Below, one piece after another: positions 5,682 to 60,041 of a stretch of 64,000 nucleotides of DNA. Each line of letters begins with the position of its first letter. Within the stretch, counting starts at the first letter, position 1. The translations under genes and the position numbers were made by a program. A model generated the notes under the pieces. The model saw only the letters and a program-made list of their open reading frames with translations. It was not told the DNA's origin and did no database searches. The stretch is from Candidatus Doudnabacteria bacterium RIFCSPHIGHO2_01_FULL_46_24. Lineage in GTDB: Bacteria; Patescibacteriota; Doudnabacteria; UBA920; O2-02-FULL-48-8. The stretch is taken from the NCBI GenBank assembly GCA_001777575.1, contig MFEL01000008.1, forward strand, positions 42,634-106,633. The letters run 5' to 3'.

Positions 5682-5787
5682 AAGTGTGATGCGAATTTAC
5701 GAATTTCATGCGAATGCTGCGAATATGCAAATCTTGGCGTTAGTCCATTCGCATATTTGTAGATTCGCATACATTCGCAGATTCGTA
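5682..5787 (-). repeat. Intergenic repeat family 1, copy A (gcgaat/ttgtagattcgcat words)
   Basis: Shares architecture and about 70% identity with 57898-58020 and 58393-58508. Fills the whole ddl-murF spacer. Confidence 0.7.
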
Positions 5788-8658: not shown

Positions 8659-9959
8659 TACTGAATCACGTCAAATCCGGTAAATTCCTGCAAAGCTTTG
8701 GGGACGAGGATGGAGCCGTCAGCCTGCTGGTAATTTTCCATTATGGCGATGGCGGCGCGCATGGTGATGGCTGTGGCGTCATTGGTATGGAGCAGTTCCG
8801 TGGCACCGTCAGGCTTGCGGATCTTGATATTCAACCGGCGCGCTTGATAATCCGTCATCATGTCAGCCGTATGGGTTTCGCGGTAAAGTGCTTGTCCGGG
8901 AAGCCAGCAATTCAAATCCACTCCCCGGGCATTGGGATTACCAATGTCAGCAGTGCATTTCAGCAGCTTTTGGTATGGAATTTCCAAAACCTGCAGCAGA
9001 TACTCCTCAATCGCTACGAAAAACTGGTGCTCCTTGAATGAATTCTCAGCGGTGACAAAAGACTCCATCTCTACTTTGTCGAATTGGTGCAAGCGGATCA
9101 TACCCTTGACGTCTTTGCCGTAACTGCCGGCCTCGCGCCTAAAGCAGGTGGAAATACCGACATAGCGCAGGGGCAAATTTTTCTGGTCCAAAGCTTCGTC
9201 CGCATGCATGGAAACCAGCGTGTGTTCGGCGCTGCCGATAAGATACAAATCATCGTCCGGCAGATAATAACGCTCATTTTTATCCGCATCAGACAAACGC
9301 GCGGTTTTGCGGTAAATGTCAGACTTGATCATCACTGGCGGAATGATGGGAATGAACGGCTTGGCCGGATAGCCCTTTTCAACCGTGTCCGCAATTTTTT
9401 TCAAGGTCTGCTCGCTGGTCAACGTTCTAAGAACAAACTGGATCAAGGCCAGTTCTAAAATCGCCATGCCTCCCTTCCAATATCCGAACCTGCTGCCAGC
9501 CACTTTGGAGCCGCGCTTCATATCGACGACATCCAGCGCCTCTCCCAGCTCAAGATGGTCTTTGGGCTTAAACTTGAATTTCTTCGGTTTGCCCCACTCC
9601 GCCACGATTTGATTCTCAGTCTCATCCGCTCCCACCGGCACGTCCTTCCAAGGAATGTTGGGAATTTCGTACATAGCCAAGAGCCACCGGTCCTCCACTT
9701 CCTTAAGCTCCAGTTCCAGCTTGGAAAGCTTGTCTTTGATTTTCCTGCTTTCGTCGACCAGGCTGTCGTCCTTGCCTTTCTTCAGGTTTTTGGTGATTTC
9801 GTTGCGGCGGCTTCGAAGCGCCTCAGTCTCGATGATCAACTTCCGCCGCGTGTCGTCCAGGCTTAAAACTTCATCCAGGGCTTCAAGATTGGTTCCCTTG
9901 TCCTTGATCGCCTTGCGAACAACCTCTTGATTTTCCCTAATAAATTTTATGTCCAGCAT
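8658..9959 (-). CDS. serS: Seryl-tRNA synthetase
   Basis: N-terminal coiled-coil arm (MLDIKFIRENQE...) and class II core motifs. Confidence 0.9.
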   Translation of the reverse strand: MLDIKFIRENQEVVRKAIKDKGTNLEALDEVLSLDDTRRKLIIETEALRSRRNEITKNLKKGKDDSLVDESRKIKDKLSKLELELKEVEDRWLLAMYEIPNIPWKDVPVGADETENQIVAEWGKPKKFKFKPKDHLELGEALDVVDMKRGSKVAGSRFGYWKGGMAILELALIQFVLRTLTSEQTLKKIADTVEKGYPAKPFIPIIPPVMIKSDIYRKTARLSDADKNERYYLPDDDLYLIGSAEHTLVSMHADEALDQKNLPLRYVGISTCFRREAGSYGKDVKGMIRLHQFDKVEMESFVTAENSFKEHQFFVAIEEYLLQVLEIPYQKLLKCTADIGNPNARGVDLNCWLPGQALYRETHTADMMTDYQARRLNIKIRKPDGATELLHTNDATAITMRAAIAIMENYQQADGSILVPKALQEFTGFDVIQ

Positions 9960-9983
9960 AATTTACTGTTTCCTGATTACTGT

Positions 9984-10586
9984 TTACTGTTTGCTAATTT
10001 CCTTAAAAATATCGGTTAGTTTTTCCAAGGCGTGCTTGCGGTGGTCCAAAATTTTCTCTTCTTCCTCGTCGATTTCGCACCAGTATTTTTTGTAATTGGG
10101 CAGAAATGTAACGGAGCGGTACGGGTAGCGCGGAATGATTTTCTCGGATGGCTTGTCAGCGATAACCCCGGCAATCTCGCCGTGGGAAGTAAAAATCCCA
10201 AACGGGGTGGCAAGCGCGATCACTATGCTGAATTTACAAGTCCTTCTTTCAGCGGGAACACCTTGCATCCGCCTCATAACTTCCGCAATGATTTCCTGAT
10301 CCTTCATTTCATGCCCCAGCCAACGACGGCTTCGCACTCCCGGTTCGCCGCCTAAGGCATCGATTTCCATGCCGCCATCGTCAACCAAAGTCGGCAGGTG
10401 GGATTTTTCAAAATAATATTTAGCCTTATTGATCGCCTCTTCCTCAAACGTCTCGCTTTTTTCTTCCGGTTCCGGGATCTTCAAATCACCCGCCGAAACG
10501 ATTTCGAGCTTAAAATCTTTGAGGAATTTCTTGTAACTGTTCACCTTTGCCTGATTTCCGGTGCCAATAAGCAACTTTTTGGACAT
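9984..10586 (-). CDS. rdgB: Non-canonical purine NTP pyrophosphatase (Ham1/RdgB family)
   Basis: LLIGTGNQAKV...EIVS matches the ATGNxGK Ham1 signature. Confidence 0.65.
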   Translation of the reverse strand: MSKKLLIGTGNQAKVNSYKKFLKDFKLEIVSAGDLKIPEPEEKSETFEEEAINKAKYYFEKSHLPTLVDDGGMEIDALGGEPGVRSRRWLGHEMKDQEIIAEVMRRMQGVPAERRTCKFSIVIALATPFGIFTSHGEIAGVIADKPSEKIIPRYPYRSVTFLPNYKKYWCEIDEEEEKILDHRKHALEKLTDIFKEISKQ

Positions 10587-10618
10587 TTTAGAAATTAGAT
10601 ATTAGAAATTAGAAATTT

Positions 10619-11173
10619 TTACAATCCTATTTCCTCTGCCCTTTCCTTCATGGCATTCAAGCTTATTTCCACCAGTTCCGGCAATTCCATATCGATATAT
10701 TCTTTGCAAAGCAAAATGATTTCCCGGTTCACGCCGGCGGCAAAGCTCTTTTGCCTGAATTTTCGCATCACCGAATCAGTGGTCACGCTGGCTAATTTCT
10801 TATCCGGCTGGATGAGTGCGGCGGCGGTAATCAAACCTGATAATTCTTCCACGCAATACAAGGTTTTCTCAAGCAGGGTTTCGGGCTTGATGTTGTGCGC
10901 CCAGTTGTGGACGTAAATCGCTTTGACAATTTCCGGCTTCAAATCCGTCTTTTGCAGAATCTCTCTGCTGACCTTGGTGTGGCTTTTGAAATCATCCTTG
11001 GTTTTTTCCCAATCCAGGTCATGCAGCGTGCCGGCCAGTTCCCAATCGTCTTCGTTTTGTCCGAACTTTTTCGCCAAGGCTTTCATGATAAATCCAACCA
11101 CCAAGTTGTGCCTGATTAAATTCTGGTTTTTTATGTGCTCATCCAAAAGAGCCAAGGCCTGGTCTCTAGTCAT
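10619..11173 (-). CDS. HD-domain phosphohydrolase
   Basis: H...HDLDW metal-binding motifs. 184 aa. Confidence 0.6.
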   Translation of the reverse strand: MTRDQALALLDEHIKNQNLIRHNLVVGFIMKALAKKFGQNEDDWELAGTLHDLDWEKTKDDFKSHTKVSREILQKTDLKPEIVKAIYVHNWAHNIKPETLLEKTLYCVEELSGLITAAALIQPDKKLASVTTDSVMRKFRQKSFAAGVNREIILLCKEYIDMELPELVEISLNAMKERAEEIGL

Positions 11174-12620: not shown

Positions 12621-12721
12621 GTTACGTGTGACGTGATTCGTGTTACGTGGCCTTAATTATACCATAAATCAGTTAAACACCTCAACCGGGTTGAGGTGTT
12701 TAACGGGCTTATGTTAGTCAA

Positions 12722-22840: not shown

Positions 22841-23801
22841 TCAATTCATTATTAAGCATTAAGTTCGTCAGCACGAGCTTACTGTTGAGGTTTTGGTCGA
22901 GCAATAATGTGGTCGCCAACAGATTTCTAAGTTTGGCTGCGGTCGATACCGAAGGTTTGGTTTTCAATTCCTCAGCTAGTTTAACTGTCCAAAAATGAAT
23001 CTTTGAGTGAACCGTATCGTTCTCCTCATCCTCAAGCGCGGAGACCAAAAGAAGCCGTTGCATCTCATCAGTAGAAATAAGATCATTATATTGTGAATCA
23101 ATCTCGCTCAAATGCGCCAAAAAATCTTCATCGCTAGAAATGCGCATCGCAATCCCCGGTTGAGTCGGGGCGTAGGCGGCAATCAGTCTTTTTTGCTCTG
23201 ATGAAAGTTTGGCGGGAAGTAAATTTTCGTAATCCTTGAATTCCGCGCCGCCGAAAGTTATTTTCTGCAATCTCGAGGAAATGGTTTTAAGCAGGCGCTG
23301 CGGGTTGGCGGTGACCAGAACAATAACCGTGTAAGACGTGGGCTCTTCCAGGCTTTTGAGCAAGGCGTTTTGAGCCTCAACCGTCATGTTCTCCGCCTGG
23401 TCTATGATCGCAACTTTATAAGTCGCGCTGTAAGGCTTTAGGGATAATTTGTAAATCAATTCCCGCACCTGACCAATCTTGATTCCGCCTGTGCCATCCA
23501 GCTCTATAAGATCTGGATGGAACCTGTTGCTCTTGTCATCTCTACTCCCCACACCCAACTCCAAAAGCCTCTCCGCAAACCTCCTCGCCGCAGTCCGCTT
23601 GCCCACGCCCTCTGGCCCGGCAAATAAATACCCATGCGCAAGCTTGCCTCGACTTATGGCATTTTCCAAAAATTCCAGTTGTCTTTTGTGTCCGCAAATG
23701 TCTCCCCACATATTATTAATTTTAGCATTTTCTATCAGGATTGACAAAAGCCCCGCCAACGCCGGAGCGTCGCAACAAAAAACCAGCAAGCGAGAGCGCA
23801 T
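22833..23801 (-). CDS. holB: DNA polymerase III delta-prime subunit
   Basis: AAA+ clamp-loader fold. GPEGVGK P-loop. Confidence 0.75.
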   Translation of the reverse strand: MRSRLLVFCCDAPALAGLLSILIENAKINNMWGDICGHKRQLEFLENAISRGKLAHGYLFAGPEGVGKRTAARRFAERLLELGVGSRDDKSNRFHPDLIELDGTGGIKIGQVRELIYKLSLKPYSATYKVAIIDQAENMTVEAQNALLKSLEEPTSYTVIVLVTANPQRLLKTISSRLQKITFGGAEFKDYENLLPAKLSSEQKRLIAAYAPTQPGIAMRISSDEDFLAHLSEIDSQYNDLISTDEMQRLLLVSALEDEENDTVHSKIHFWTVKLAEELKTKPSVSTAAKLRNLLATTLLLDQNLNSKLVLTNLMLNNELNA

Positions 23802-24036
23802 GCTGACTTTTGTTAGGCCCAGTATATCAACTTCGATAAATGGTTTTATCCGCTTTTGCGGTCTACTATAACCAAGCTCTCGGTTATAGTTGATGAAAGA
23901 TCAGGCATTGATCGATCCGACCATTTGAACGCAAAAGCGATCGAAGTTGTATTACTGGGTAGGCTTAACCTCAGCCATTTTCGCAAAAGCAAACTTAGGC
24001 GTCAATCAGGATAAGTGGAAAAAATGTTAGTAAAAA

Positions 24037-24053
24037 GCCACCTCATCGGTGGC
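24037..24053. terminator. Symmetric hairpin gccacc-tcatc-ggtggc flanked by A5 and GTTTTA (bidirectional terminator-like)
   Basis: Lies inside the 575-bp ORF-free region. Read on the minus strand it is followed by a T run. Confidence 0.4.
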
Positions 24054-24399
24054 GTTTTACATACAGATCGGTGTGGTACTGATTTGTCAGCTTCGCCCTT
24101 ACGAACTCCACTGACCGAAGGAAAAGGTCCAAGAGGTTTCCCTTACTTGTTTGACACCGAAGACATTTCTTCTTCAGCGTACCTTTACTAACCAGTATCT
24201 CTTGATCCATCGAACAGCCTTTTTAGAGCCGTCCTGCTTCGCAAGGGTTGCCCCTTACGAAGACCATGGTAGGAACATTCTAACTAGGGTAAAAAATCAC
24301 GTCAAATATTTTTTCAATTACAAAAAATAGCCACATTTGCAGGCTTTTTTGTCAGGCTGTGAATAAGCTGTGCCTATCAAGAGGATAATATCTTAATAT

Positions 24400-24445
24400 C
24401 TATAATATCCCAATATCGATATTAGGATACTAAGATATTGGGATA
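24400..24445 (-). terminator. Perfect 15-bp inverted repeat (taatatcccaatatc / gatattgggatatta) immediately after the mreB-paralog stop
   Basis: AT-rich perfect palindromic arms separated by 16 nt, directly 3' of the stop at 24446. Confidence 0.4.
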
Positions 24446-25453
24446 TTATTTGCTCGCCAATATGCTGCGCTTATAACTCTCCAAGTTTTCCAGTGCCACA
24501 CCCGTTCCTTTGGCTACGCATAAAATAGCATCATCAGCCACATAAGCAGGTACGCCGGTGGATTGGCCAATCAGACGCTCAATGTTCCGCAGGAGCGCCG
24601 TACCGCCAGTTAGAACCATGCCTTTATCAATGATATCCGCGGCCAGCTCCGGCGGCGTTTCCTGCAGGACGGTTCTTACGGCTTTGATGATTTCGCGCAG
24701 TTCTTCCTGGATGGACTCGACAACCTCATTGGTCGAAACCTGTACGGTTTTGGGCAGGCCCTGAATCAAATCCCGGCCGCGAATCTCGATCGTGGTTTCT
24801 TTATCCACGGGCAAAGCCGAGCCAATTTTGATTTTTATCTCCTCAGCCGTACGATCCCCGACCGCCAAGCCATATTTGCGGCGAATATATTCAGCAATAG
24901 CCTGGTCAAGCTTATTACCAGCCACGCGCACGGACGTCTGGGTCACAATTCCGCCCAAAGACAGCACCGCAACATCAGTCGTGCCCCCGCCAATATCGAT
25001 AATCATGTTACCGGAAGGCGTCGAAATATCTATTCCAGCACCTATGGCAGCAGCCACCGTCTCTTTAATGACATAGGCGGCCTTGGCGCCAGCTGCGGTA
25101 GCGGCGTCCACCACGGCGCGGCGCTCAGTCGATGTAATGCCGCCTGGCACAGAAATCATGACTTCCGGCCGGAAGAACCGGATATTGCCCGCCGCCTTGT
25201 TGATAAAATACCGCAACATGGCCTCGGTTACGCGGTAATCCGCAATCACCCCGTCCTTCATGGGCCGGTGCGCCACGATGGTGTCCGGGGTTCGGCCAAG
25301 CATCTCTTTGGCTTCCGCGCCCACAGCCAAAACTTTGTTGTCAACGGTTGAAATAGCCACCACTGTTGGCTCATTGATGATAATGCCTTTTTTCGGCACG
25401 AAGACTAAGGTATTAGCTGTGCCTAAATCTATGCCGATTCTCTTTAGAAACAT
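24446..25453 (-). CDS. mreB: MreB-family actin homolog (second paralog)
   Basis: [14 protein letters not shown] motif. 335 aa. About 50% identical to the copy at 16850-17908. Confidence 0.85.
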
Positions 25454-25521
25454 AGTTATAAATTATTTTATTACGAATTCCGGATTAACGAATTGTCAAT
25501 CCGCAATCCGTTAATTCGCAA
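25454..25521 (-). repeat. Intergenic repeat family 2, copy 1 (cggattaacgaattg / ccgttaattcg words)
   Basis: Related to 55728-55804 and 56960-57034. Contains nested inverted repeats. Confidence 0.65.
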
Positions 25522-26775
25522 TTAATCAATTCTCTTGATATCCGCGCCCAAGCTTTGCAGTCTTTCTTCTAATCGCTCATACCCCCGATCAATATGCTCC
25601 ACTCCGCCTATCTCGGATTGTCCAGTGGCCACCAGAGCCGCAATTATCATGGTCATACCCATCCGAATGTCAAGGCCTATTATTTTAGCACCATGCAGGG
25701 GAGTAACACCAGCGATCTTTACCTGATGGGAGTCTAACACTTCCGCGTTGGCACCCATTTTTTTAAGCTGTTGGACATAGCTGAGACGGTTCTCGTAAAG
25801 CCATTCGAAAATATAAGATTCACCTTCGGCCTGCGTGGCCAGCACGGCCATGGGCGGCATGTCGTCTGAAGCCAACTTAGGATACAACCCGCTTTGGATT
25901 TTAGAGCCAGTATAAGGCTTTTGGGACGGCGACACATGGATATAATCTTTTCCGGTTTCAAAATTTACATGCATCTGCCGCAGTTTCAGCAAAAAATCTT
26001 CCATAAATTCCGGATTCAATCGGGAAATGACCACGTCGCTTTTGGTAGCTGCGGCCAAGGTAATAAAACCGGCAGCCTCGTTGGAATCCGGAATAAGTTC
26101 GGCGGTGGCGCCATGAAGCTCAAGCGCGCCTTCCACGACCAAAGTCGGCGACCCGATGCCGGAAATCTTGGCCCCCATTCTGTTCAAAAATTCGCACAAA
26201 GCCTGGACATGCGGCTCCATGGCCGCCAGTTTGATTATGGTTGTCCCCGAGGCCAAAACCGCGGCCATTAACGCGTTTTCCGTGGCTGTGACCGATGATT
26301 CAATTAAAACGATTTTATTGCCTGTTAATTGCTCGCAGTTAAGCTCAATGCCGTTTCCCTGCCTCACCTCGGCTCCTAAATCCTCAAAAGCGCGCAAATG
26401 GGCATCCACGGGCCGTTTGCCGATCAAATCGCCGCCTGGCAAAATCATGGCGGCTTTTTTCTTCCGGGCCAACAAAGGCCCCAAAAGCAATATGGATCCG
26501 CGCAATTTGGCAGCCAAATCCGGATTAACTTCGGTCTTGGAAAGTTTTGCGGCCCTGATGCTGAGGCGGTGATCTCCCAAACTGACTTCTGCGCCCAAAT
26601 CCGAAAGCAATGACGCCATGGTTTCCACATCGCGGATTTTGGGCACATTGGTCAATATGCACTCGTCCGCCGTCAAAAGGCAGGCCGCCATCATGGGCAA
26701 AACCGCGTTCTTTGACCCCGCGACTGTTATTTCCCCGTTTAGCGGTTTATTGCCGTTTATAATAAATTTAGCCAT
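25522..26775 (-). CDS. murA: UDP-N-acetylglucosamine 1-carboxyvinyltransferase
   Basis: Start reassigned to MAKFIINGNKPLNGEITVAGSKNA (ATG at 26775). The 88-aa N-terminal extension in the ORF track has no similarity. Confidence 0.9.
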   Translation of the reverse strand: MAKFIINGNKPLNGEITVAGSKNAVLPMMAACLLTADECILTNVPKIRDVETMASLLSDLGAEVSLGDHRLSIRAAKLSKTEVNPDLAAKLRGSILLLGPLLARKKKAAMILPGGDLIGKRPVDAHLRAFEDLGAEVRQGNGIELNCEQLTGNKIVLIESSVTATENALMAAVLASGTTIIKLAAMEPHVQALCEFLNRMGAKISGIGSPTLVVEGALELHGATAELIPDSNEAAGFITLAAATKSDVVISRLNPEFMEDFLLKLRQMHVNFETGKDYIHVSPSQKPYTGSKIQSGLYPKLASDDMPPMAVLATQAEGESYIFEWLYENRLSYVQQLKKMGANAEVLDSHQVKIAGVTPLHGAKIIGLDIRMGMTMIIAALVATGQSEIGGVEHIDRGYERLEERLQSLGADIKRID

Positions 26776-26824
26776 ATATAAGCTTGGGTATTTTAACAAA
26801 AAATAGTAAAATAATGAATAGCTT

Positions 26825-27652
26825 ATGAAACTGCGAAATCGGCTATTACTTGTAGGTTTCGGGGTGGTGGTATTCCTAATTGTAACCCCGGCTCTAATCA
26901 TGTTTGCTCGGGGTTTTAAGTTTGACCTGCAAAGTTGGCAATTGATCAAGACCGGGACTCTGGTGGTGAGAACCGAGCCGGAACATGCCACGGTCTTTAT
27001 CGACGATAAGCCGCAAAAAAATTTGACTCCTTTGACCATCCGATTCCTCTTGCCTGGCGATTATGTCATCCGCATCGAAAAAGAGGGTTACAGTTCCTGG
27101 ACCAAGCGACTTTCAATCAAAAGCCAGCTGGCGACCTGGGCCAACGCCAACCGCGAATTTATTACCCTTTTTCTTAAGCAACCCCAGCCGGAAACACAAG
27201 CCGAAGTCCCAAAAAATGAAGCCTTCCCAATTTCGGAGGGTTTAATCCAGGCGGGCCAACTCAGCTTCACTCTCCAGGATTCAATCCTCTTTAGACAAAA
27301 CCCGGGCTTAGAAAAAATTTATGAACCGGTCAGGGAAGCCTATTGGGATGATGAATCTAAAAGGATTGTATTATCCAATAATAACGAAATTTTGCTTCTC
27401 GACCCCCTCAATGACAGCCCTGATCTTATCCTCCGCAGCGTTTCGGAAATCAGAAATGCCAGGCTCAACTGGCATACCGGCTACATGTTTTTCCAAAACG
27501 AAGGCCGGATCAAAGCCATTGAACTGGATGGCCGGGATCACCGGAATGTTTATACAATCACAGATGCCGGGGTAGATTTTACGATAGATGAAAAAGGCGA
27601 GAGGCTGTATGTGATGGGTCAGACAGAGGTTAAGGAATATCGGATACGGTAA
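26825..27652 (+). CDS. Membrane-anchored PEGA-domain protein
   Basis: N-terminal TM helix and the PEGA motif region (…LLPGDYVIRIEKEGYSSW). Confidence 0.55.
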   Translation: MKLRNRLLLVGFGVVVFLIVTPALIMFARGFKFDLQSWQLIKTGTLVVRTEPEHATVFIDDKPQKNLTPLTIRFLLPGDYVIRIEKEGYSSWTKRLSIKSQLATWANANREFITLFLKQPQPETQAEVPKNEAFPISEGLIQAGQLSFTLQDSILFRQNPGLEKIYEPVREAYWDDESKRIVLSNNNEILLLDPLNDSPDLILRSVSEIRNARLNWHTGYMFFQNEGRIKAIELDGRDHRNVYTITDAGVDFTIDEKGERLYVMGQTEVKEYRIR

Positions 27653-51111: not shown

Positions 51112-51130
51112 AAGAAAAAATCCAGCTTAA

Positions 51131-51895
51131 TTATACCATGTTTGTTAGCGTTTCACAACCGTTTTCCGTTACTATTACCGTATGTTCAAAATGCGCTGAG
51201 CGGCTCCCGTCAGCGGTTTTGACAGTCCAGCCGTCATCGGTAAATATCACTTTCCATGCCCCGGCGTTAATCATCGGCTCTATAGCCAGAACCATTCCCG
51301 AAACAAGTTTAGTTCCTGTGCCGCTTTTTCCATAACAAGGAACCTCAGGGTCCTCATGCACAGATTTTCCAACCCCGTGGCCGACCAACTCTCGAACAAC
51401 GTTGAATTTATTTTGCCGAGCTACTTCTTCGATCGTTTGCCCGATGTCACCGGTAAAATCGCCGGCCCTCACTTTGAGCGCTGTTTTAAGAGCGATCCGG
51501 GCGGTTTCAATAAGCCTTAATGATTCAATATCGACTTTCCCCACGGCAACGGTGACCGCCGCATCGGTGTAGAATCCCTGGTACACAACCCCCAAATCCA
51601 AACCAACAATGTCGCCTTGCCGCAAAATTTTATCCTTGCTGGGAATCCCATGCACGACCTCGTCATTTACCGACACGCATAAGCTTGCGGGAAAGGGTTT
51701 TTGGCCTTTCATGGAACTGTAATTCTTAAAAGCGGAGCAAGCGCCACTGCTTCTGATTTCCTGTTCCGCGATCTGGTCCAGCTCAAGAGCGGAAACCCCA
51801 GGCCTGACGTGCGCTTGCGCAATCGCCAAAGTTTTTGCAAGTATCCGGCCGGATTGCCTAAGCAGGTCAAGCTCTTTTGGATCGCTGGTAATCAT
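51131..51895 (-). CDS. map: Methionine aminopeptidase type I
   Basis: Full-length M24A similarity. Confidence 0.9.
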   Translation of the reverse strand: MITSDPKELDLLRQSGRILAKTLAIAQAHVRPGVSALELDQIAEQEIRSSGACSAFKNYSSMKGQKPFPASLCVSVNDEVVHGIPSKDKILRQGDIVGLDLGVVYQGFYTDAAVTVAVGKVDIESLRLIETARIALKTALKVRAGDFTGDIGQTIEEVARQNKFNVVRELVGHGVGKSVHEDPEVPCYGKSGTGTKLVSGMVLAIEPMINAGAWKVIFTDDGWTVKTADGSRSAHFEHTVIVTENGCETLTNMV

Positions 51896-52469
51896 GGATG
51901 GCTTTCTGGATATCTTGAGCGACTTTTTTAATACGCTGGTCGCCTTTAATAAATCGCAGTTTATTGATTGACTGAAAATATTTAATGCCCTTGTTGGTAT
52001 CGGGATTCTGCCATTGCATCCGCTTCTTTATATATGCGAGATTTGAATCGTCTTCGCGCTCATGTTTGGATAAGCGTTTTTTGAGCCGTCTGTACACTTC
52101 TCTTTCCGGCAATTTGATGAACAAAACAAAAAAATCCCGACGCTTCTCACTCAAAAGTTTTTTCAGCAACCAAGCCTCCGGCTTGAGTCTGGGATTGCCG
52201 ACAAAAATCAAATCACGATTTGAACTTACTGTACTGATTTGATTCTTTAGGAACTTTTTCATCAGAGGCACTGGCGTATATTGACCTCTGTTCATGGTTC
52301 TTCTCAGCCACCGGCCCTCGGCATTATTTTTTTTTGCCATTGCGCGCCAATGCTTGCCGGATTCAACCGGTTTGAGCGAATAACGCTCTTGCAAAATTCG
52401 GGCTTGGGTGTCTTTCCCAGACCCCGGGCCTCCAAGCAGCACTAAATCAAATCCGAGCCGTTCTTTCAT
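51867..52469 (-). CDS. Divergent adenylate-kinase-like NMP kinase (second paralog)
   Basis: GGPGSGKDTQ P-loop. Basic C-terminal extension. Confidence 0.55.
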   Translation of the reverse strand: MKERLGFDLVLLGGPGSGKDTQARILQERYSLKPVESGKHWRAMAKKNNAEGRWLRRTMNRGQYTPVPLMKKFLKNQISTVSSNRDLIFVGNPRLKPEAWLLKKLLSEKRRDFFVLFIKLPEREVYRRLKKRLSKHEREDDSNLAYIKKRMQWQNPDTNKGIKYFQSINKLRFIKGDQRIKKVAQDIQKAIHDYQRSKRA

Positions 52470-52474
52470 TCTGT

Positions 52475-53053
52475 TTACTGATTACTGATTACTAGTTTTT
52501 GCATTATTTCCCGATGCACGTCTTCAATCGGCTGGTCGCCGTTAATTTCCACCAGTTCGCCTTTGCTTTTGTAATGCTCTTTGATCAGGATGTTGCGCTT
52601 CTCGTATTCCTCGTACCTGTGACGGGCAATTTGGGGATCATCATCAGAACGGCCCTGTCCCCGGATGGTTATCCTTTTGACAACCTCTTCCTCGGATACA
52701 TTGAGAAAAACGATTCTTAGATCCTTAATTTTTATATCTTCCACTATCCTGTCCAGATCTTCTGCCTGGCCCATGGATAAGGGATACGTATCAAAAACCA
52801 CGGTGCCAGAGTCGGCAAGAGCCTTCAGCTTCCTGTCAAGAAGCATGCTGGCAATCGCATCGGGTTGCGGGGTCCCCTGGTCATAACGCGCCTTGGCTTC
52901 ATGCGCTTCATCGGAATTTTCTTGGATAAACTCTCTGATCAAATCACCCAAAACAATCCTGGGTGCCCCTAAAAATTTAGCCAATAATTCCGATTGCGTC
53001 CCCTTGCCGCTCCCCGGCGGCCCCAAAACCACAAATATTTTCTGTAACTTCAT
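52475..53053 (-). CDS. adk: Adenylate kinase
   Basis: Start reassigned to MKLQKIFVVLGPPGSGKGTQ (ATG at 53053). The canonical secY-adk-map arrangement is present. Confidence 0.85.
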   Translation of the reverse strand: MKLQKIFVVLGPPGSGKGTQSELLAKFLGAPRIVLGDLIREFIQENSDEAHEAKARYDQGTPQPDAIASMLLDRKLKALADSGTVVFDTYPLSMGQAEDLDRIVEDIKIKDLRIVFLNVSEEEVVKRITIRGQGRSDDDPQIARHRYEEYEKRNILIKEHYKSKGELVEINGDQPIEDVHREIMQKLVISNQ

Positions 53054-53131
53054 GCAAACATTATAGCTAAAAATTACAAATAAAAAAAGGCTTAAATAAG
53101 CCATTTCTAACACCTCACATGGATTGAGGCG

Positions 53132-54430
53132 TTAGAAATTTTCGTAGTCCCGCATGATCATCTGGGACTTGACCTGATTGATAATCTCAATCACTACGGC
53201 CACGACGATCAAAATGCCAGTGCCTCCAAGAGTCAAAGTGGAAGTTTTGGTGAATGATTGGATGATATAAGGCAAAACAGCGATCAAGCCCAAAAACAGC
53301 GCTCCAACCAAGGTGATGCGGTTTAGGACCTTGTACAAAAACTCCGCGGTCTGTCGACCCGGCCGCAGTCCCGGCACAAAGCCGCCCTGTTTTTGGATAT
53401 TGTCGGCGATTTCATCGGGATTAAACACGATCGCCGTGTAGAAGTAGGTAAAAGCGACCACCAGCAAGAAATACATGATACCGTAATAAGTCTGGTTCTG
53501 GAAAAAATCGTTGATGCTTGCGGCAAACGAGGCAATCTGCGGCGTGCGAGACTGTGAAAAGAAATTGGCAATAAGTCCCGGAAACAACAAAATCGAAATG
53601 GCGAAGATGATGGGTATCACACCGGCCTGGTTGACCCTCAGCGGCAAATGAGTGCTGACTCCGCCGTAAAGCTTATTGCCCCGCACGCGCTTGGCGTAAG
53701 AAACGGGGATATTGCGCTGAGCCTCGGTAATACCGACGATTGCGGCGATGACGAGAAACGCCACAGCCAAAAAGCCGACAGCGGTGACGACACCGGTGGA
53801 AGACAGCTGGCCAGTCGAGGTCGTGAGATTAACATAACCCTGCTGGATCGCCGGAGGCAATTGAGAAACAATGCCGGCGAAGATAATCATGGACACGCCG
53901 TTGCCCAATTTATACTCGGTAATCAATTCACCCAGCCACAAAAGCAGCATACTGCCGGCAGTGATGGATAATAACGCCACAAACCACTGGAAAGCCGAAA
54001 ATTCGGTAATGAGGTCGCTGCCGCTCGTGCGCGTAAGCAAGATGATCGTGCCATAGCCTTGCAAAACGGTCAGCGGGACGGTCAGCCAGCGCGTATATTG
54101 GTTAATCTTCGCCCGACCGGCCTCGCCGCCCTCTTTGGCCAACTCTCCCAATTTCGGGACAATGATAGTCAGTAACTGCATGATGATGGATGCAGTAATG
54201 TATGGCCCCACCCCGAGCATGGCCACGGAAAAATTCTGCAGACCGCCGCCGGAGAAGATGTTGAACAACCCGAACAGCTGATTGGAATTAAGCAGATTTC
54301 TCAGATTGGCGAGTTCAACGCCGGGAATCGGAATGTTAGCCAGGATCCTGGTCCCAATCAAAAGCAGAGCGACGAACAAAATTCTGTTCCGCAAATCTTT
54401 CACTTTCCAAAGTTGTGATAGTCTGGACAT
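53132..54430 (-). CDS. secY: Preprotein translocase subunit SecY
   Basis: Start reassigned to MSRLSQLW… (ATG at 54430, 1 nt after the rplO stop). 10-TM SecY fold. Confidence 0.9.
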   Translation of the reverse strand: MSRLSQLWKVKDLRNRILFVALLLIGTRILANIPIPGVELANLRNLLNSNQLFGLFNIFSGGGLQNFSVAMLGVGPYITASIIMQLLTIIVPKLGELAKEGGEAGRAKINQYTRWLTVPLTVLQGYGTIILLTRTSGSDLITEFSAFQWFVALLSITAGSMLLLWLGELITEYKLGNGVSMIIFAGIVSQLPPAIQQGYVNLTTSTGQLSSTGVVTAVGFLAVAFLVIAAIVGITEAQRNIPVSYAKRVRGNKLYGGVSTHLPLRVNQAGVIPIIFAISILLFPGLIANFFSQSRTPQIASFAASINDFFQNQTYYGIMYFLLVVAFTYFYTAIVFNPDEIADNIQKQGGFVPGLRPGRQTAEFLYKVLNRITLVGALFLGLIAVLPYIIQSFTKTSTLTLGGTGILIVVAVVIEIINQVKSQMIMRDYENF

Positions 54431-54431
54431 A

Positions 54432-54872
54432 TTACGTGACCTTGCCGCCCGCTTTTTCAATTTTTGCCTTGGCGGCAGCAGAGAGCAAAACATTCTCGAA
54501 ATTCAAAGCCTTAGCAAGCTCTCCATCTCCCAAAATTTTCACGCTTGTGAGTTGGGACTTGATCAAACCCTTATTGACTAAATTTTTAGGATTAACGGTT
54601 TCTCCGCTTGAAAACTTAACCGCTAAATCAGCCAAACTCAGCGCTTGGGCTTTGGGCGACAAACTCTTAAATCCCCGTTTCTTGGGGATTTGCCGGTGCA
54701 ACGGCATCCGACCGCCCTCAAAGCCGACTGGAATGGAGCTGCCGCTGCGGGCTTTCTGGCCCTTGGCACCCCGGCCGGAAAACGTCCCGTGGCCGGAACC
54801 AACCCCGCGTCCGATGACTTTGCGGCGGCGAGTCGAGCCCTTATACGGTTTTAATTGGGATAGCTCAAGCAT
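54432..54872 (-). CDS. rplO: 50S ribosomal protein L15
   Basis: GRGVGSGHGTFSGRG motif. Confidence 0.9.
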   Translation of the reverse strand: MLELSQLKPYKGSTRRRKVIGRGVGSGHGTFSGRGAKGQKARSGSSIPVGFEGGRMPLHRQIPKKRGFKSLSPKAQALSLADLAVKFSSGETVNPKNLVNKGLIKSQLTSVKILGDGELAKALNFENVLLSAAAKAKIEKAGGKVT

Positions 54873-55353
54873 TGTGGTTCGTTTCCCTTATTTTCATTTT
54901 CGCCAAAGCATGATAAGTCGCCAAAACGTTGTTTATCTTATTGGACGAACCAAGCATCTTCGACAAAACGTTCTTAACCCCGACCAAATCCAAGACTGAG
55001 CGGATAGCCCCGCCGGCAATGATGCCTGTGCCAGGCCGTGCCGGTTTGAGGAAGACCACTGATGATTTGTATTTCAGCTTCATTTCATGCGGAATCGAGT
55101 CATTTACCAAATTGACCTTGATCATATTCTTTTTCGCCTGTGAGACGGCCTTGTTTACGGCTTCTGAGACGTCCGCGCCTTTTTTTACTCCCACTCCCAC
55201 TTTCCCTTTGCGATCGCCAACCACGACCAAAGCGCGAAACCTCATTCGCTTGCCGCCGGCCACGACGCGAGTGACGCGCTTGACCTCGACGACCTTCTGG
55301 TCGAATTCTCTTTTGATTGCTTCTTGTGATCTGCCTCTTGTAGGTCTAGCCAT
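54865..55353 (-). CDS. rpsE: 30S ribosomal protein S5
   Basis: Full-length S5 similarity. Confidence 0.9.
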   Translation of the reverse strand: MARPTRGRSQEAIKREFDQKVVEVKRVTRVVAGGKRMRFRALVVVGDRKGKVGVGVKKGADVSEAVNKAVSQAKKNMIKVNLVNDSIPHEMKLKYKSSVVFLKPARPGTGIIAGGAIRSVLDLVGVKNVLSKMLGSSNKINNVLATYHALAKMKIRETNHNA

Positions 55354-55385
55354 TTGATTAGTAATTAGTAAATAGAAATTAGAAA
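55354..55385 (-). repeat. Stop-codon-rich tandem word spacer (ttagtaa/ttagaaa) between rplR and rpsE
   Basis: ttgattagtaattagtaaatagaaattagaaa. Confidence 0.5.
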
Positions 55386-55727
55386 TTAGAACTTGAGACC
55401 GGCTGACCGCGCGGCGTCAGCCAATTCTTTTATCCGGCCGTGATATTTATAACCGCCGCGGTCGAAAGTGACCTCTGAAATGCCCGCTTTCAAGGCCTTT
55501 TCCGCGGCCAACTTCCCGACCAATGCAGCCAATTGGGTCTTGTTGCTCTTACCCGGCACTTCTCGGCTGGTCGCGCTAATAAGCGTCCTGCCGCTTTCAT
55601 CGTCAATCAACTGCACATAAATATGGCTTAATGATCGAAACACGCTTAAGCGGGGGCGGGCTGCGATGCCGCTTATTTTTGCCCGAACTCTTCGATGCCT
55701 TGATTGTCTTTGCTTATTTCTGGCCAT
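55386..55727 (-). CDS. rplR: 50S ribosomal protein L18
   Basis: Full-length L18 similarity. Confidence 0.9.
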
Positions 55728-55804
55728 ATTCTTATAATTATTTATTAACGAATTGCGGATTACGGATTATCAATTCACAATTCGTTAATCCGTTAATTCG
55801 CCAA
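55728..55804 (-). repeat. Intergenic repeat family 2, copy 2 (between rplF and rplR)
   Basis: ttaacgaattg…caattcgttaa 11-bp inverted repeat nested with a cggattacgg / ccgttaatccg pair. Confidence 0.65.
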
Positions 55805-56359
55805 TTACTTACCACCACCGACTGCCTTCACGACTTTGCCAGCCTTGCGCCTAATGATTTCATCCGAATATTTAATTCCTTTTCCTTTGTAGGGTTCCGG
55901 TTCTCTTTGGGAACGAACAACCGCGGCAAACTGCCCGACCTGTTGTTTGTCGCTGCCGCTGATTGTGATAAGATTTTTGTCGACCTTGGCTTCGAGGCCG
56001 GGAGGAATAGCCATTTCGATCGGATGGGAATAACCTAAATTCAACGTCAGCGACTTACCCGTAACCGCAGCCTTGTACCCAACACCGTTGACTTCCAAGA
56101 TTTTAGTGTACCCATTGGTCACACCGAGGACCATATTGTTGATCAGCGAGCGAAACAGCCCCCACAGCGCCTTTTCTTGTTTCGATGCTTTGTCAGCCAC
56201 TTCCACGACCAATTCCGAATCACGCTTCACCGCTTTGACTTTGGGATGAATCGTAAGCGACAGTTCTCCTTTCGGCCCTTTAACCTTAAGGATTTGGTCT
56301 ATGACTTCGGCGGTAACGCCTGAAGGGATGGTGATCGGTTTTTTTCCTATGCGTGACAT
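55805..56359 (-). CDS. rplF: 50S ribosomal protein L6
   Basis: Start reassigned to MSRIGKKPI (ATG at 56359). Confidence 0.9.
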   Translation of the reverse strand: MSRIGKKPITIPSGVTAEVIDQILKVKGPKGELSLTIHPKVKAVKRDSELVVEVADKASKQEKALWGLFRSLINNMVLGVTNGYTKILEVNGVGYKAAVTGKSLTLNLGYSHPIEMAIPPGLEAKVDKNLITISGSDKQQVGQFAAVVRSQREPEPYKGKGIKYSDEIIRRKAGKVVKAVGGGK

Positions 56360-56367
56360 AAAGTTTA

Positions 56368-56760
56368 TTACCAAATTTGACAAATAATTTCGCCGCCAAT
56401 TTTCTGCTTTCGCGCATTTTCAGCCGTGACCAGCCCCTTGGAGGTCGAAACGATAGTAGTGCCCAGCCCTCCCATCACTCTCGGAATGTCGGTGGTTTTT
56501 TTATAAATCCTCTGTCCGGGCTTGCTGATTCGCTGAATTCCGGAAATCACCGGTTGACCTTCGGCCGTATATTTCAGTTCAAGCTGCAAATTTTTGAATT
56601 TGCTGTCATTGCCGACTTCGAAATTCCTAATCCAACCCCCGTGCATAAGCACTTTGGCTAAATTGTGCTTAAAATTCGAATACGGCACCACTACCTCTGT
56701 CTTGCGAGAGGCATATGCGTTTCTTATTCGTGTTAGCATGTCTGAAATTGGGTCTGTCAT
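56368..56760 (-). CDS. rpsH: 30S ribosomal protein S8
   Basis: MTDPISDMLTRIRNA N-terminus. Confidence 0.9.
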   Translation of the reverse strand: MTDPISDMLTRIRNAYASRKTEVVVPYSNFKHNLAKVLMHGGWIRNFEVGNDSKFKNLQLELKYTAEGQPVISGIQRISKPGQRIYKKTTDIPRVMGGLGTTIVSTSKGLVTAENARKQKIGGEIICQIW

Positions 56761-56764
56761 ATGT

Positions 56765-56959
56765 TTACCATGAAGACTTTGTAACGCCGGGAATTTCGCC
56801 GTTGGAGGCCAGCTCCCGGAAACAAATGCGGCAAATATTGAAATTCCGCATGTAACCGTGCTTTCTGCCGCACCGCCAACAGCGTCTAACTACCCTGGTT
56901 GAATACTTGGGCTTGGTCCGGGATCTTAATGATTTGATTGTTTGAGCTTTAGTGGCCAT
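56765..56959 (-). CDS. rpsZ: 30S ribosomal protein S14 type Z (zinc-binding)
   Basis: 61-aa form with the CxxC…CxxC zinc motif. Confidence 0.85.
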
Positions 56960-57034
56960 AATGCTTAAAAATTATTTATTAACGGATTACGGGTTACGGA
57001 TTTGCAATTCGCAATTCGTTAATCCGTTAATTCT
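56960..57034 (-). repeat. Intergenic repeat family 2, copy 3 (between rplE and rpsZ)
   Basis: ttattaacggattacgggttacgg…caattcgttaatccgttaattc. Confidence 0.65.
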
Positions 57035-57577
57035 CTAATCATTCTTAAAGGGGAAGCCTAAAGATTTTAGCAGAGCGAGCGCCTTCTTGTCATTGTCGGT
57101 ATTGGTCTGAATGTTTATCTCCAGCCCAAATGCATGCTCAATGTGCTCGTCGCCGGTTTCCGGAAAAACATTCTGCTCTTTGATGCCGATGTTGTAATTC
57201 CCACACCCGTCAAATCCTTGCTTGGACAAACCACGGAAGTCGCGGACACGGGGCAACGCAGCTCTAATCAATTTTTCCAAAAAATCATACATGCGCCGGC
57301 CCCGCAGCGTAACCTTAAGTCCAACTACCTGATTCTGCCTGATCTTAAACCCAGCAATGGATTTACGAGCCAATGTTTTAACCGGCCGCTGCCCTGCTAT
57401 GCGTTGGATGTCTTCGATAATGATATCCAAAAATTTGGGATCTTTCAAAGTTTTACCGACTCCAACGTTAAGCACGACCTTCTCGATTTTGGGAACCGCG
57501 GAAGCGTTTTGCAAACCCAACTCTTGCTTCAGAGCTGGGACGATTTTTTCTTTATAAATCGTTCTTAAATCTGTCAT
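57035..57577 (-). CDS. rplE: 50S ribosomal protein L5
   Basis: Start reassigned to MTDLRTIYKEKIVPAL, which aligns with the E. coli L5 N-terminus and abuts the rplX stop. Confidence 0.9.
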   Translation of the reverse strand: MTDLRTIYKEKIVPALKQELGLQNASAVPKIEKVVLNVGVGKTLKDPKFLDIIIEDIQRIAGQRPVKTLARKSIAGFKIRQNQVVGLKVTLRGRRMYDFLEKLIRAALPRVRDFRGLSKQGFDGCGNYNIGIKEQNVFPETGDEHIEHAFGLEINIQTNTDNDKKALALLKSLGFPFKND

Positions 57578-57579
57578 AA

Positions 57580-57897
57580 TTAATTCAAAGTTTTGCCGCA
57601 TTTCTTACAGCGTCTAAAATTGCCCTCATCACTCACCTCGTGAGCCACCCGGGTCGGCTTGCCGCAGTGTGGACAAATCAACATCACTTTGGAAATATTT
57701 AAGGGCCCTGGCAGTTCCATCCGCTGGCCTTTTTCACCGGCTTTTTTCGGGCGTGAAAAACGAAAATGCACATTGAGTCCTTCCACAATGATTCGCGAGT
57801 ACTTGGGCAGGACGCGAATAATCTTGCCCCGTTTGTTCTTATCCTTGCCGGAAAGCAGTTTGACCTCATCGCCTTTTTTGATGCTCAGTTTGTTCAT
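57580..57897 (-). CDS. rplX: 50S ribosomal protein L24 with a C-terminal Cys4 zinc-ribbon extension
   Basis: KOW motif (KKGDEVKLLSGKDK) plus CPHCGK…CKKCGK. Confidence 0.85.
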   Translation of the reverse strand: MNKLSIKKGDEVKLLSGKDKNKRGKIIRVLPKYSRIIVEGLNVHFRFSRPKKAGEKGQRMELPGPLNISKVMLICPHCGKPTRVAHEVSDEGNFRRCKKCGKTLN

Positions 57898-58020
57898 AAG
57901 AATAATATGATGCTAATTTGCTAATTTATGCCAATTGGCGAATTGCTAATGGCCCAACGCTAAGTGTTTGGTTATTCGCAATTTGTAGATTGGCATGACA
58001 TTCGTAGATTCGCATCGTAT
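57898..58020 (-). repeat. Intergenic repeat family 1, copy B (between rplN and rplX)
   Basis: About 85-90% identical to 58393-58508. Confidence 0.75.
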
Positions 58021-58392
58021 TTATATTACTTCCGGGGCTAATGAAATAATTTTCGTAAAACCCAGATCGCGCAATTCCCTCGGAATCGGGCCAAATATGC
58101 GTGTCCCCCGGGGCTCTTGGCTGTCCTTATTCACCAGCACGGCAGCATTGTCATCAAATCGAATATACGAACCGTCGCTCCTCCGAGTCTCCTTCCGGGT
58201 TCTGACGATTACCGCATAAACCTTGTCGCCTTTTTTGACCTGCCCTTTTGGTGAAGCATCCTTAACCGAAGCCGCGACCACGTCGCCGAGCCTGACTACG
58301 CGCCTGCGGTTTTTCCCGGCTACGCCGAATACGGCCAATTCCTTGGCCCCCGTATTGTCTGCAACGTTTAATCTGGTCCTGAGCTGAATCAT
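58021..58392 (-). CDS. rplN: 50S ribosomal protein L14
   Basis: [18 protein letters not shown]-terminus. Confidence 0.9.
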
Positions 58393-58508
58393 GAATATGT
58401 GATGCTAATTTGCGAATCTTATGCCAATCTGGCGAATTGCTAATGGTCCAACGCTAAGGGTTGGGTTATTCGCAATTTGTAGATTGGCATTGCATTTGTA
58501 GATTCGCA
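58393..58508 (-). repeat. Intergenic repeat family 1, copy C (between rpsQ and rplN)
   Basis: Near-identical to copy B. Contains a tandem atttgtagatt(g/c)gcat unit. Confidence 0.75.
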
Positions 58509-58742
58509 TCATATCTTACTGATTACTCTCCAATGCACTGTCTTGGAAATTGGCCGACATTCTTCTATAACAACTCGGTCTCCGGCCTTAAATTCGCCCT
58601 CGCCAATCTGTGCTGGGTATCGTTTGTGCACCTTAAATCGTTTCAGGTATTTTGGGTGGGTTTTTGTAGACTCGACCTTGACCACCACGGTTTTATGCAT
58701 TTTTACGGAATCTATAATCCCAATCAAATGTCTCTTTGACAT
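58509..58742 (-). CDS. rpsQ: 30S ribosomal protein S17
   Basis: Full-length S17 similarity. Confidence 0.9.
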   Translation of the reverse strand: MSKRHLIGIIDSVKMHKTVVVKVESTKTHPKYLKRFKVHKRYPAQIGEGEFKAGDRVVIEECRPISKTVHWRVISKI

Positions 58743-58743
58743 A

Positions 58744-58926
58744 TTATTGCTGGTTTAATATCGTTAAAATTCTGGCGATGTCTTTCCTCAGAACCCTGAG
58801 TTGGTGATTATTCTTAACTTCCTTGGAATAAATCTTGAAACGCATCGTTCGCAGCTGCTCCCGAAGCGAGGCAATCAGCTTGTTCAATTCCACTTCGGAC
58901 ATTCGCTTTAATTCAGAGATTTTCAT
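58744..58926 (-). CDS. rpmC: 50S ribosomal protein L29
   Basis: 60-aa helical protein. Position is between S17 and L16. Confidence 0.85.
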   Translation of the reverse strand: MKISELKRMSEVELNKLIASLREQLRTMRFKIYSKEVKNNHQLRVLRKDIARILTILNQQ

Positions 58927-58928
58927 GA

Positions 58929-59342
58929 TTACTGCCTCTCTTTTGTTATAAATCGAGTTTTAATGGGGAGTTTATGCGAGGCTAATCTCATCGCTTCCGC
59001 CGCTGCTTCGACAGGCACGCCGTCCATTTCAAACAACACTCGTCCTTTCCGGACTACGGCCACGAAATGGTCCACTGCCCCCTTACCGCTGCCCATGGGC
59101 GATTCGTTGCCGTGAGAAGTGATTGGTTTGTCCGGAAAAATCCGGATCCAAATCTTGCCGCCGCGGGCCACATAACGGGTCATGGCGCGCCTAGCCGCCT
59201 CAATTTGGCGGGAGGTAACCCAGCTGTTCTCCACAGCCTTCAATCCGAAAGAACCGAAAGCCACCGTGTTTCCTGACATGGCCTTGCCGCTCGATCGTCC
59301 GCGGTGGTGCTTTCGATGTTTGACTCTCTTAGGTATAAGCAT
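58929..59342 (-). CDS. rplP: 50S ribosomal protein L16
   Basis: [16 protein letters not shown]-terminus. Confidence 0.9.
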
Positions 59343-59396
59343 ATTTATAGATTAAAGATTAAAGAGAAAAGATCAAAATATTTTGCGTTTTTCTCT

Positions 59397-60041
59397 TTAC
59401 GTTTTACTCTTGTCAAAGACTTCGCCCTTATTTATCCAAACCTTTACGCCGATCGTGCCGTAGGTCGTGTAGGCAGTGGCTTTGGCAAAATCAATATTTG
59501 CGCGCAGGGTGTGCAGGGGTAATTTTCCCTTCATCAACCGTTCCGACCGCGCAATGTCAGAACCGCCCAGCCTCCCGGCGACTTCCAGCTTGACGCCGAT
59601 GGCACCGGATTCCATAATCTGTTCAATTGAGCCTTTCATGGCTCTGCGGTAAGCAATCCGCTTCTCCAGCTGGTCGGCGATATTTTGGGCAATAACCTGG
59701 GCTTGCAAATTGATTTCTTTGACTTCCTCAATATTGATCTTAATGTCCAATTTCTTTCCCAGATGTCTGACGATCTTCTTCTTCAACTCGTCAACTCCAC
59801 CGCCGCCCTTACCGATAATCATGCCTGGTTTGACGGTTTTGATGGTCACGTTGACGGCTGCTCCAAAACGCTCGATATCAATGCGGACCACTCCGGCTTT
59901 TTTTAAAATGTTAAACAAAAACTGCCTAATCCTGGTGTCTTCTTCCAGATACTGAGAAAAATGAGTCTTTGTCAGCCAGCGCGATTTCCAAGTGTCGGTT
60001 ATTTTCAGCCTAAAGCTGTTGGCGTTAACCTTTTGTCCCAT
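59397..60041 (-). CDS. rpsC: 30S ribosomal protein S3
   Basis: Start reassigned to MGQKVNANSFRLKIT (ATG at 60041). KH domain. Confidence 0.9.
   Translation of the reverse strand: MGQKVNANSFRLKITDTWKSRWLTKTHFSQYLEEDTRIRQFLFNILKKAGVVRIDIERFGAAVNVTIKTVKPGMIIGKGGGGVDELKKKIVRHLGKKLDIKINIEEVKEINLQAQVIAQNIADQLEKRIAYRRAMKGSIEQIMESGAIGVKLEVAGRLGGSDIARSERLMKGKLPLHTLRANIDFAKATAYTTYGTIGVKVWINKGEVFDKSKT

Follow-up and report, generated by a model that had tools for sequence, protein, structure and literature searches.

A dispersed palindromic spacer repeat, probably REP/MITE-like, at ribosomal-protein and mreB junctions of Candidatus Doudnabacteria

Introduction

The DNA analysed here, referred to as the window, is a stretch of 64,000 nucleotides from Candidatus Doudnabacteria bacterium RIFCSPHIGHO2_01_FULL_46_24 (contig MFEL01000008.1, positions 42,634 to 106,633), and it raises the question why three of its intergenic spacers, two within the spc operon of ribosomal-protein (r-protein) genes and one ahead of mreB, hold the same inverted-repeat pattern. 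A first-pass annotation, made from the letters of the window, had taken the pattern for a conserved structured element and possibly for a binding site of an autoregulatory r-protein. According to the results presented below, the spacers are somewhat better explained (with a probability of roughly 0.55) as copies of a dispersed palindromic intergenic repeat of Candidatus Doudnabacteria, also present in a few other contigs of the candidate phyla radiation (CPR), which resembles repetitive extragenic palindromic (REP) sequences and miniature inverted-repeat transposable elements (MITEs). The genomes of the host group are tiny, and mobile DNA is thought to be scarce in them.

One repeat family in three spacers

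A repeat-family search over the 64 kb assigned three spacers of 68-77 nt each to one family (copies A, B and C in Table 1), as the first-pass annotation had noticed. The 22-mer GAATTAACGGATTAACGAATTG has exactly two occurrences in the 64 kb, on the minus strand at 55778-55799 and 57012-57033, with 0.00 occurrences expected from shuffles, and a density scan with six 6-nt words returned only three clusters, which are the three family spacers. Nearly all genes of the window, and all those flanking the three copies, lie on the minus strand, so the mRNA corresponds to the reverse complement of the letters that were read in the first pass. The gene names given there hold, since family matches confirmed that copy A is preceded by a gene of the EPSP_synthase/MurA family and followed by the gene for MreB (PF06723), with L6 followed by L18 around copy B, and L5 followed by S14 around copy C. 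The S14 gene itself (64 aa, 56765-56959, minus strand; PF00253, E = 5.5e-24) is absent from the public gene calls on all contigs of this species, which leave a gap between L5 and S8 where it sits.

On the sense strand, the element fills the whole spacer in the order of upstream stop codon, direct words, loop, inverted words, A/T-rich tail and next ATG. It starts 0-3 nt past the stop codon with a 5′ arm of three to four direct words (N)NCGRATT, mostly at a period of 8 nt, which is followed by a loop of 5-11 nt and by a 3′ arm of three inverted words AATYCG(N) at a 7-nt period, ending 17-20 nt ahead of the ATG. These last 17-20 nt form a conserved A/T-rich tail, composed of CGT(T)AATAAATAATT and a further 4-10 nt running into the start codon. 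With a direct (N)NCGRATT array at one end and an inverted AATYCG(N) array at the other, the element can be described as an imperfect palindrome, about 40-60 nt long, and the hairpins of the window copies span 39, 54 and 60 nt and include 6-7 words. Among the 11 family copies collected from the window and from other genomes (loci with L-numbers below), the tail adjoins the ATG in eight, namely the three window copies, three in locus L065 and one each in L023 and L086. The polarity relative to the downstream gene, a point raised in the first pass, is fixed: the A/T-rich tail faces the start codon.

Every window copy folds when taken alone (z-scores of -3.3 to -5.6, on either strand), with a minimum free energy (MFE) of about -19 to -22 kcal/mol, and the hairpin survives the inclusion of flanking coding sequence in the fold. 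The 20 nt ahead of the AUG are predicted to remain largely unpaired (probability 0.54-0.61). The nested inverted repeats described in the first pass are real as far as hairpin potential is concerned, but they are imperfect, and cggattacgg and ccgttaatccg, which had been set against each other, are not exact complements. The window copies are identical across five strain-level assemblies, and therefore do not represent hypervariable slippage loci.

Table 1. Coordinates of the three family copies and of their parts in the window
Feature	Position	Strand	Description
Copy A	25454-25521	-	Whole spacer between the MurA-family gene (25522-27039) and mreB (24446-25453), 68 nt
Copy A hairpin	25473-25511	-	-21.7 kcal/mol; one unpaired word ahead of it at 25512-25521
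Copy A tail	25454-25472	-	A/U-rich, UAAUAAAAUAAUUUAUAACU, adjoins the mreB AUG
Copy B	55728-55804	-	Whole rplF (L6)-rplR (L18) spacer, 77 nt, from the base after TAA to the base before ATG
Copy B hairpin	55745-55804	-	Imperfect; MFE of -21.2 kcal/mol for the 77-nt spacer
Copy B 5′ arm	55777-55804	-	Words CGAATT, CGGATT, CGAATT, TGAATT
Copy B loop	55771-55776	-	
Copy B 3′ arm	55745-55770	-	Words AATCCG, AATCCG, AATTCG
Copy B tail	55728-55744	-	A/U-rich and G-poor, UAAAUAAUUAUAAGAAU, adjoins the rplR AUG; no Shine-Dalgarno-like sequence
Copy C	56960-57034	-	Whole rplE (L5)-rpsZ (S14) spacer, 75 nt
Copy C hairpin	56978-57031	-	Imperfect; MFE of -19.2 (sense) and -23.0 (antisense) kcal/mol
Copy C tail	56960-56977	-	A/U-rich, AAAUAAUUUUUAAGCAUU, adjoins the rpsZ AUG

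Filled and empty junctions in related genomes

At 100% identity, the L6 protein of the window matches the one encoded by Candidatus Doudnabacteria bacterium RIFCSPLOWO2_02_FULL_48_8 (GCA_001779995.1), and the next relatives reach an L6 identity of at most 80%. The spc operon was compared with four other Doudnabacteria loci (L090-L093), in which every spacer was read. The L6-L18 and L5-S14 spacers, 77 and 75 nt long in the window, are reduced to 1 nt and to overlapping genes in L090 (L6 identity 80%), to 1 and 4 nt in L091 (76%), and to 20 and 5 nt in L093 (74%). In L092 (76%) they measure 38 and 52 nt and are made of TTTCTAA and AAGGATT words, respectively. Orthologous sites thus exist in both states, filled in the window, empty at L6-L18 in L090 and L091, and near-empty at L5-S14 in L090, L091 and L093, and the notion of an element conserved at these two junctions fails, as the relatives' junctions are without the family.

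Locus L065, which was obtained in a pattern scan of GTDB representative genomes and belongs to a Doudnabacteria metagenome-assembled genome (MAG; nzgw380) from another continent, holds three family copies with the same tail at S14-S8, S3-L16 and S19-L22, that is, at junctions where the window has no family copy. Further copies precede rplS (L086) and a gene for a predicted membrane protein (L023, on a contig labelled Saccharibacteria). Because the junctions of relatives lack the family and copies are found at other junctions and before other genes, the element is not tied to any gene. Copies of the window and of L065, although at non-orthologous sites, match over 78-84% when gaps are counted, with an alignment score of 52.5 against 12 for the best of 300 shuffles. 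This is the figure to use, as low sequence complexity raises the identity in aligned columns to an apparent 97% (74% in shuffles). The r-protein genes flanking the copies have 73-80% nucleotide identity between the window and L065. The density amounts to 3 copies in the 64 kb window and 3 copies in 7 kb of L065.

In regard to the wider distribution, the source genome gave no match in the pattern scan of GTDB representative genomes, and a metagenome scan with the pattern of 3′ arm plus tail returned six loci only, of which 3-4 are family-like. No match to the word strings was found in literature searches. The five matches of a viral scan all fell into one phage coding sequence and were dismissed as chance.

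RNA structure and ribosomal-protein control

A known r-protein operator is the S8 site of the spc operon in E. coli, for example, and r-protein leader families are described in Rfam. The spacers resemble such operators in holding a hairpin inside an r-protein operon near a start codon, and it was this position, together with the hairpin potential, that spoke for an r-protein binding the stem-loop at L6-L18 and L5-S14 and controlling spc translation. The following results contradict this explanation. In an alignment of the 11 copies, RNAalifold found 0 consensus pairs, and the compensatory changes by which the first-pass annotation would have recognised an RNA structure are lacking. In two registers drawn by hand, 86.5% and 85.0% of the cells are paired, and 483 and 482 of 500 column shuffles, respectively, reach values at least as high; pairs in which both partners have changed number 1 and 0 in these structures, again no better than in shuffles. 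The varying base within the words forms pairs at the rate expected by chance (e.g., 4 G-C versus 5 non-pairs, or 2 versus 9), so the pairing is a by-product of the fixed letters CG.ATT facing AAT.CG. We found no evidence of selection on RNA structure.

The strand on which the hairpin is more stable is in line with the above. The antisense hairpin exceeds the sense hairpin in 8 of the 11 family copies, and over 46 spacer hairpins of the window and the relatives there is no strand preference (26 versus 20, Wilcoxon p = 0.69). An asymmetry of G.U pairs was considered as a sign of RNA-level selection and was rejected, as the sense strand is not favoured. At the gathering threshold, Rfam had no match in the whole 64 kb, and at an E-value threshold the regions 55300-58600 and 23700-24500 gave only sub-threshold matches to plant microRNA hairpins. 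tRNA scans of the window and of four other loci found none. Taken with the absence of positional conservation, and with copies that precede mreB, rplS, the gene for a predicted membrane protein and other r-protein genes in L065, these results lead us to reject r-protein autoregulation at these spacers. The hairpin may nevertheless have a generic part in RNA processing or stability.

A probable dispersed palindromic repeat

According to the reading that we prefer, the element would be non-autonomous and would be gained and lost at intercistronic junctions, where it would span the whole distance between the stop codon of one gene and the start codon of the next and would be transcribed within the operon mRNA. 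In the transcript, the palindrome could fold into a modest stem-loop of about -15 to -22 kcal/mol, with effects that would at most be generic, for instance the shielding of parts of the transcript against exonucleases or the insulation of adjacent cistrons from each other. For the downstream gene, the G-poor tail would serve as an unstructured, Shine-Dalgarno-less ribosome landing region, as would be usual for most genes of this organism.

The element shares several traits with REPs and with the bacterial interspersed mosaic elements (BIMEs) composed of them, which are small, imperfect, dispersed palindromes between unidirectional open reading frames (ORFs), lineage-specific, present as several families per genome and plausibly co-transcribed as RNA hairpins (PMC3733652, Di Nocera et al. 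2013). REPs have a unit of 20-40 bp with an unpaired GTAG or CGTC tag at the palindrome end (PMC3733652), whereas GTAG, CTAC and CGTC are missing from all 11 copies, only one of which (L088) has an internal GACG. Unlike REPs, the element has a longer palindrome (about 40-60 nt) that is built of tandem 7-8-nt words, and its polar A/T-rich tail adjoins the downstream start, while REPs lie mostly downstream of genes. Furthermore, no REP-associated tyrosine transposase (RAYT) is known for it. A further mark of REPs is a high copy number throughout the genome.

Co-transcribed MITE-like repeats of bacteria include Correia/NEMIS of Neisseria, ERIC and RUP/BOX. The likeness to these lies in the putative non-autonomous character, the inverted ends, the presence or absence at orthologous sites, the intergenic location and the presumed transcription together with neighbouring genes. 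The element is shorter, however, and its arms are word arrays of variable number instead of fixed terminal repeats. It is a previously undescribed addition to the small dispersed intergenic palindromes.

Several points weigh against an origin of this kind. There is no clear target-site duplication, which is also a point of difference from MITE-like repeats; a possible AAT at L6-L18 is not repeated at the other copies. In the fetched loci, no parental insertion sequence sharing the ends was noticed, no whole-genome search having been made. A gene that could mobilise the element, such as one for a transposase or RAYT, was likewise not found, again without a genome-wide search and with no screen of the window ORFs for Y1 transposases. 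The copy count covers 64 kb of the source genome. Moreover, the fixed word letters without covariation, together with the high identity between species, would also fit a host factor reading the words, and the fixed polarity toward the start codon could reflect function and not survivorship.

If the three spacers are indeed copies of a dispersed repeat, hairpins inside CPR r-protein operons need not be regulators, and a tempting false lead is removed. The r-protein operons of Doudnabacteria hold spacer repeats that are specific to the lineage and differ in presence from one species to another, and among them is an undescribed family of unusual build, with tandem words and a tail facing the start codon, in hosts with tiny genomes. 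This raises the questions of how such a family spreads without an obvious transposase and whether word arrays ahead of start codons aid translation in bacteria where Shine-Dalgarno sequences are apparently little used.

Terminators, promoters and operators

Stable stem-loops directly past stop codons could also belong to intrinsic terminators or attenuators, by which some transcripts would be stopped or paused and the stoichiometry of operon products tuned. Related to this, similar word hairpins lie between convergent genes at Bacteroidota loci (9 of 57 clusters). We consider such a role very improbable, as the G+C-rich stem with a U-tract that marks an intrinsic terminator is absent: the stems are A/U-rich with one mismatch per word, and the tail that follows is A-rich (UAAUAAAUAAUU...). 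A terminator scan of 54000-60000 placed no site in either r-protein spacer and found 7 sites against 7.7 expected in shuffles. The copies are also located in the middle of operons that are essential and that require expression of the genes downstream.

Another explanation, likewise very improbable in our view, assumes an internal promoter, with TTGACA, TTGATA or TTGCAA in the loop as the -35 box and TAATAA in the tail as the -10 box, or an operator, in which the word arrays bind a regulator of double-stranded DNA. The -35-like hexamers in the loops, the A/T-rich tail and the inverted repeats, which are typical of operators, would agree with it. The hexamers are, however, about 20 nt apart and thus outside the range of 16-18 nt, and neither of the r-protein spacers contains a minus-strand site according to a promoter scan. 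The element is devoid of TATAAT boxes, which are present in other spacers, some of them as TGnTATAAT (e.g., 12656-12664 and 51130-51138). A word period of 8 bp (or 7 bp) does not hold the sites on one face of the duplex, and relatives lacking the spacer are difficult to reconcile with either function.

TIGR arrays were considered as well and were dropped, since the copies are single hairpins between housekeeping genes and not long arrays beside a Tas gene.

A possible host factor reading the words

The main competing explanation, possible but in our view unlikely, is a cis-element of the host, in which the 7-8-nt words would be multivalent sites for a host protein that binds single-stranded RNA or DNA, an S1- or cold-shock-type OB-fold protein being one candidate. 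The 3′ word array with the tail could then be a signal for Shine-Dalgarno-independent initiation or coupling of translation, with the 5′ array as an anti-leader that would be unwound by the ribosome terminating at the adjacent stop codon. Such a function would agree with the retention of the letters CG.ATT and AAT.CG while middle and spacer bases vary without covariation, with the polarity toward the ATG, with the start of the hairpin 0-3 nt past the stop codon and with a sense hairpin that is not optimised for stability. The leaders are moreover G-poor, and G-poor heptamer arrays precede other starts of the window at 10587-10618, 55354-55385 and 12621-12649. Analogous TAACTGA heptamer arrays are located directly upstream of starts, with S1, Csp and Csr proteins as proposed binders (PMC4679880). 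On the other hand, the explanation leaves aside the close relatives that have no spacer at all at the same junctions. The tail is already largely unpaired (0.54-0.61), so coupling by unwinding is not needed.

In regard to initiation, a Shine-Dalgarno-like motif precedes 15 of 64 window genes, a count that has no shuffle baseline and was made with the 16S 3′ end of the host not seen. Intergenic leaders at positions -15 to -1 contain 39% A and 11% G, compared to 25.7% G overall on the sense strand. The motif count and this composition suggest that initiation in this organism is mostly Shine-Dalgarno-independent.

Intergenic heptamer repeats include the STRR heptamers of cyanobacteria. TAACTGA repeats upstream of starts are found in Beggiatoaceae, Cyanobacteria and some Bacteroidetes (MacGregor 2015, PMC4679880). 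In Cand. Maribeggiatoa, most sets of them lie within several nt of the start codon and in a fixed orientation; across phyla their occurrence is patchy, and their function is unknown (PMC4679880). The element resembles them in its tandem 7-nt words with stop codons and in the fixed orientation near the start, a likeness of layout only, as the word differs. It departs from them in having an inverted partner for its start-proximal array, which leads to a hairpin, and in its host, a CPR bacterium. Direct repeats of G-poor heptamers in the window (TTTCTAA, CACGTAA, CAGTAAT and TTAATCT on the sense strand), which extend up to start codons and have no hairpin partner, also resemble the TAACTGA repeats (PMC4679880). 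Besides the three sites given above, they were observed at 52470-52493, 9960-9992 and 59345-59377, and the TTTCTAA array recurs at the L6-L18 junction of L092 (10556-10593).

Word arrays in other phyla

When GTDB representative genomes were scanned with a 19-base pattern derived from the 5′ words, 77 loci (L007-L083) matched, for which we estimate a chance expectation of about 17-60. About 20 of the loci are chance matches in coding sequence and about 50 are intergenic arrays of NNCGRATT or AATYCGNN words. The intergenic arrays come from roughly two dozen other genomes of several phyla, including Chitinophagaceae, Sphingobacteriales, Ignavibacteria and several CPR phyla, along with single MAGs of Acidobacteriota, Desulfobacterales and Chloroflexaceae. 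Of 57 word clusters, 54 are intergenic. Their neighbours may be co-directional, convergent or divergent genes, and the clusters often extend over nearly the entire spacer, leaving only a few nt next to the stop and start codons. The CGRATT array comes first, ahead of the AATYCG array, in 21 cases and second in none. Many other 7-8-nt vocabularies were detected at the same loci with Tandem Repeats Finder (TRF), and among inverted array pairs of all vocabularies the G-first order prevails by 28 to 1. As both arm orders are equal in stacking energy, thermodynamics would not explain this rule. The only C-first word palindrome that we saw lies at 24385-24448 of the window (TAATATCT / GATATTAG).

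Such findings could mean that the element is one case of a word-array grammar shared across phyla by lineages in which Shine-Dalgarno sequences are apparently little used (CPR, Bacteroidota and Ignavibacteria), although we regard this as rather improbable. Under such a grammar, arrays of 7-8-nt words would occupy spacers as far as the start codon, and in inverted arrays the one containing G would always precede its C-containing complement. It is similarly improbable that the words are read by a conserved single-strand-binding factor and represent signals for Shine-Dalgarno-independent translation, for coupling or against Rho, instead of junk. The nearest published parallel to the arrays of several phyla are the TAACTGA heptamers upstream of starts (PMC4679880).

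Other repeats and genes of the window and its relatives

Many other spacers of the window consist of hairpins or of tandem arrays of 7-8-nt words, and the r-protein operons of relatives hold other hairpin repeat families at other junctions; spacer repeats are therefore a general trait of the lineage. A second hairpin family of the window (GCGAAT...ATTCGC, about 105-125 nt) occupies the rplN-rplX spacer (57898-58020), the rpsQ-rplN spacer (58393-58508) and 5682-5787 before the gene starting at 5681, and is found in L092 at L18-S5 instead (10936-11055). In the same order of window sites, its antisense (plus) strand folds at -55.9, -50.5 and -40.0 kcal/mol, compared to -25.7, -34.7 and -23.1 kcal/mol for the mRNA; the antisense folds contain 8-10 G.U pairs.

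In L093, a multi-hairpin element of 183-190 nt is present at S14-S8, S8-L6 and L18-S5. The operons of relatives also contain a CCCGTTAGAAAT...ATTTCTAACGGG repeat family, and L092 contains a GCGCTCGGG...CCCTCGC family. The larger spacer-repeat sites are located at 9237-9424, 9818-10000, 10918-11107, 6943-7048, 8395-8499 and 13354-13541 in L093, and at 1662-1927, 2920-3061 and 16258-16595 in L092.

Between mreB and the next minus-strand gene, 644 nt (23802-24445) are without a long ORF, an Rfam match or a tRNA, and this stretch, in which the C-first palindrome at 24385-24448 is located, may hold an unrecognised RNA gene. In the S10 operon, a gene for a glycerophosphodiester phosphodiesterase (GDPD, PF03009; 63069-63737, minus strand) lies between rplC (L3) and rplD (L4), and the same arrangement is found in every Doudnabacteria locus that covers the region. 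Likewise, two tandem genes of the adenylate kinase family follow secY (51867-52469 and 52475-53113, minus strand), in an order that is retained in relatives.

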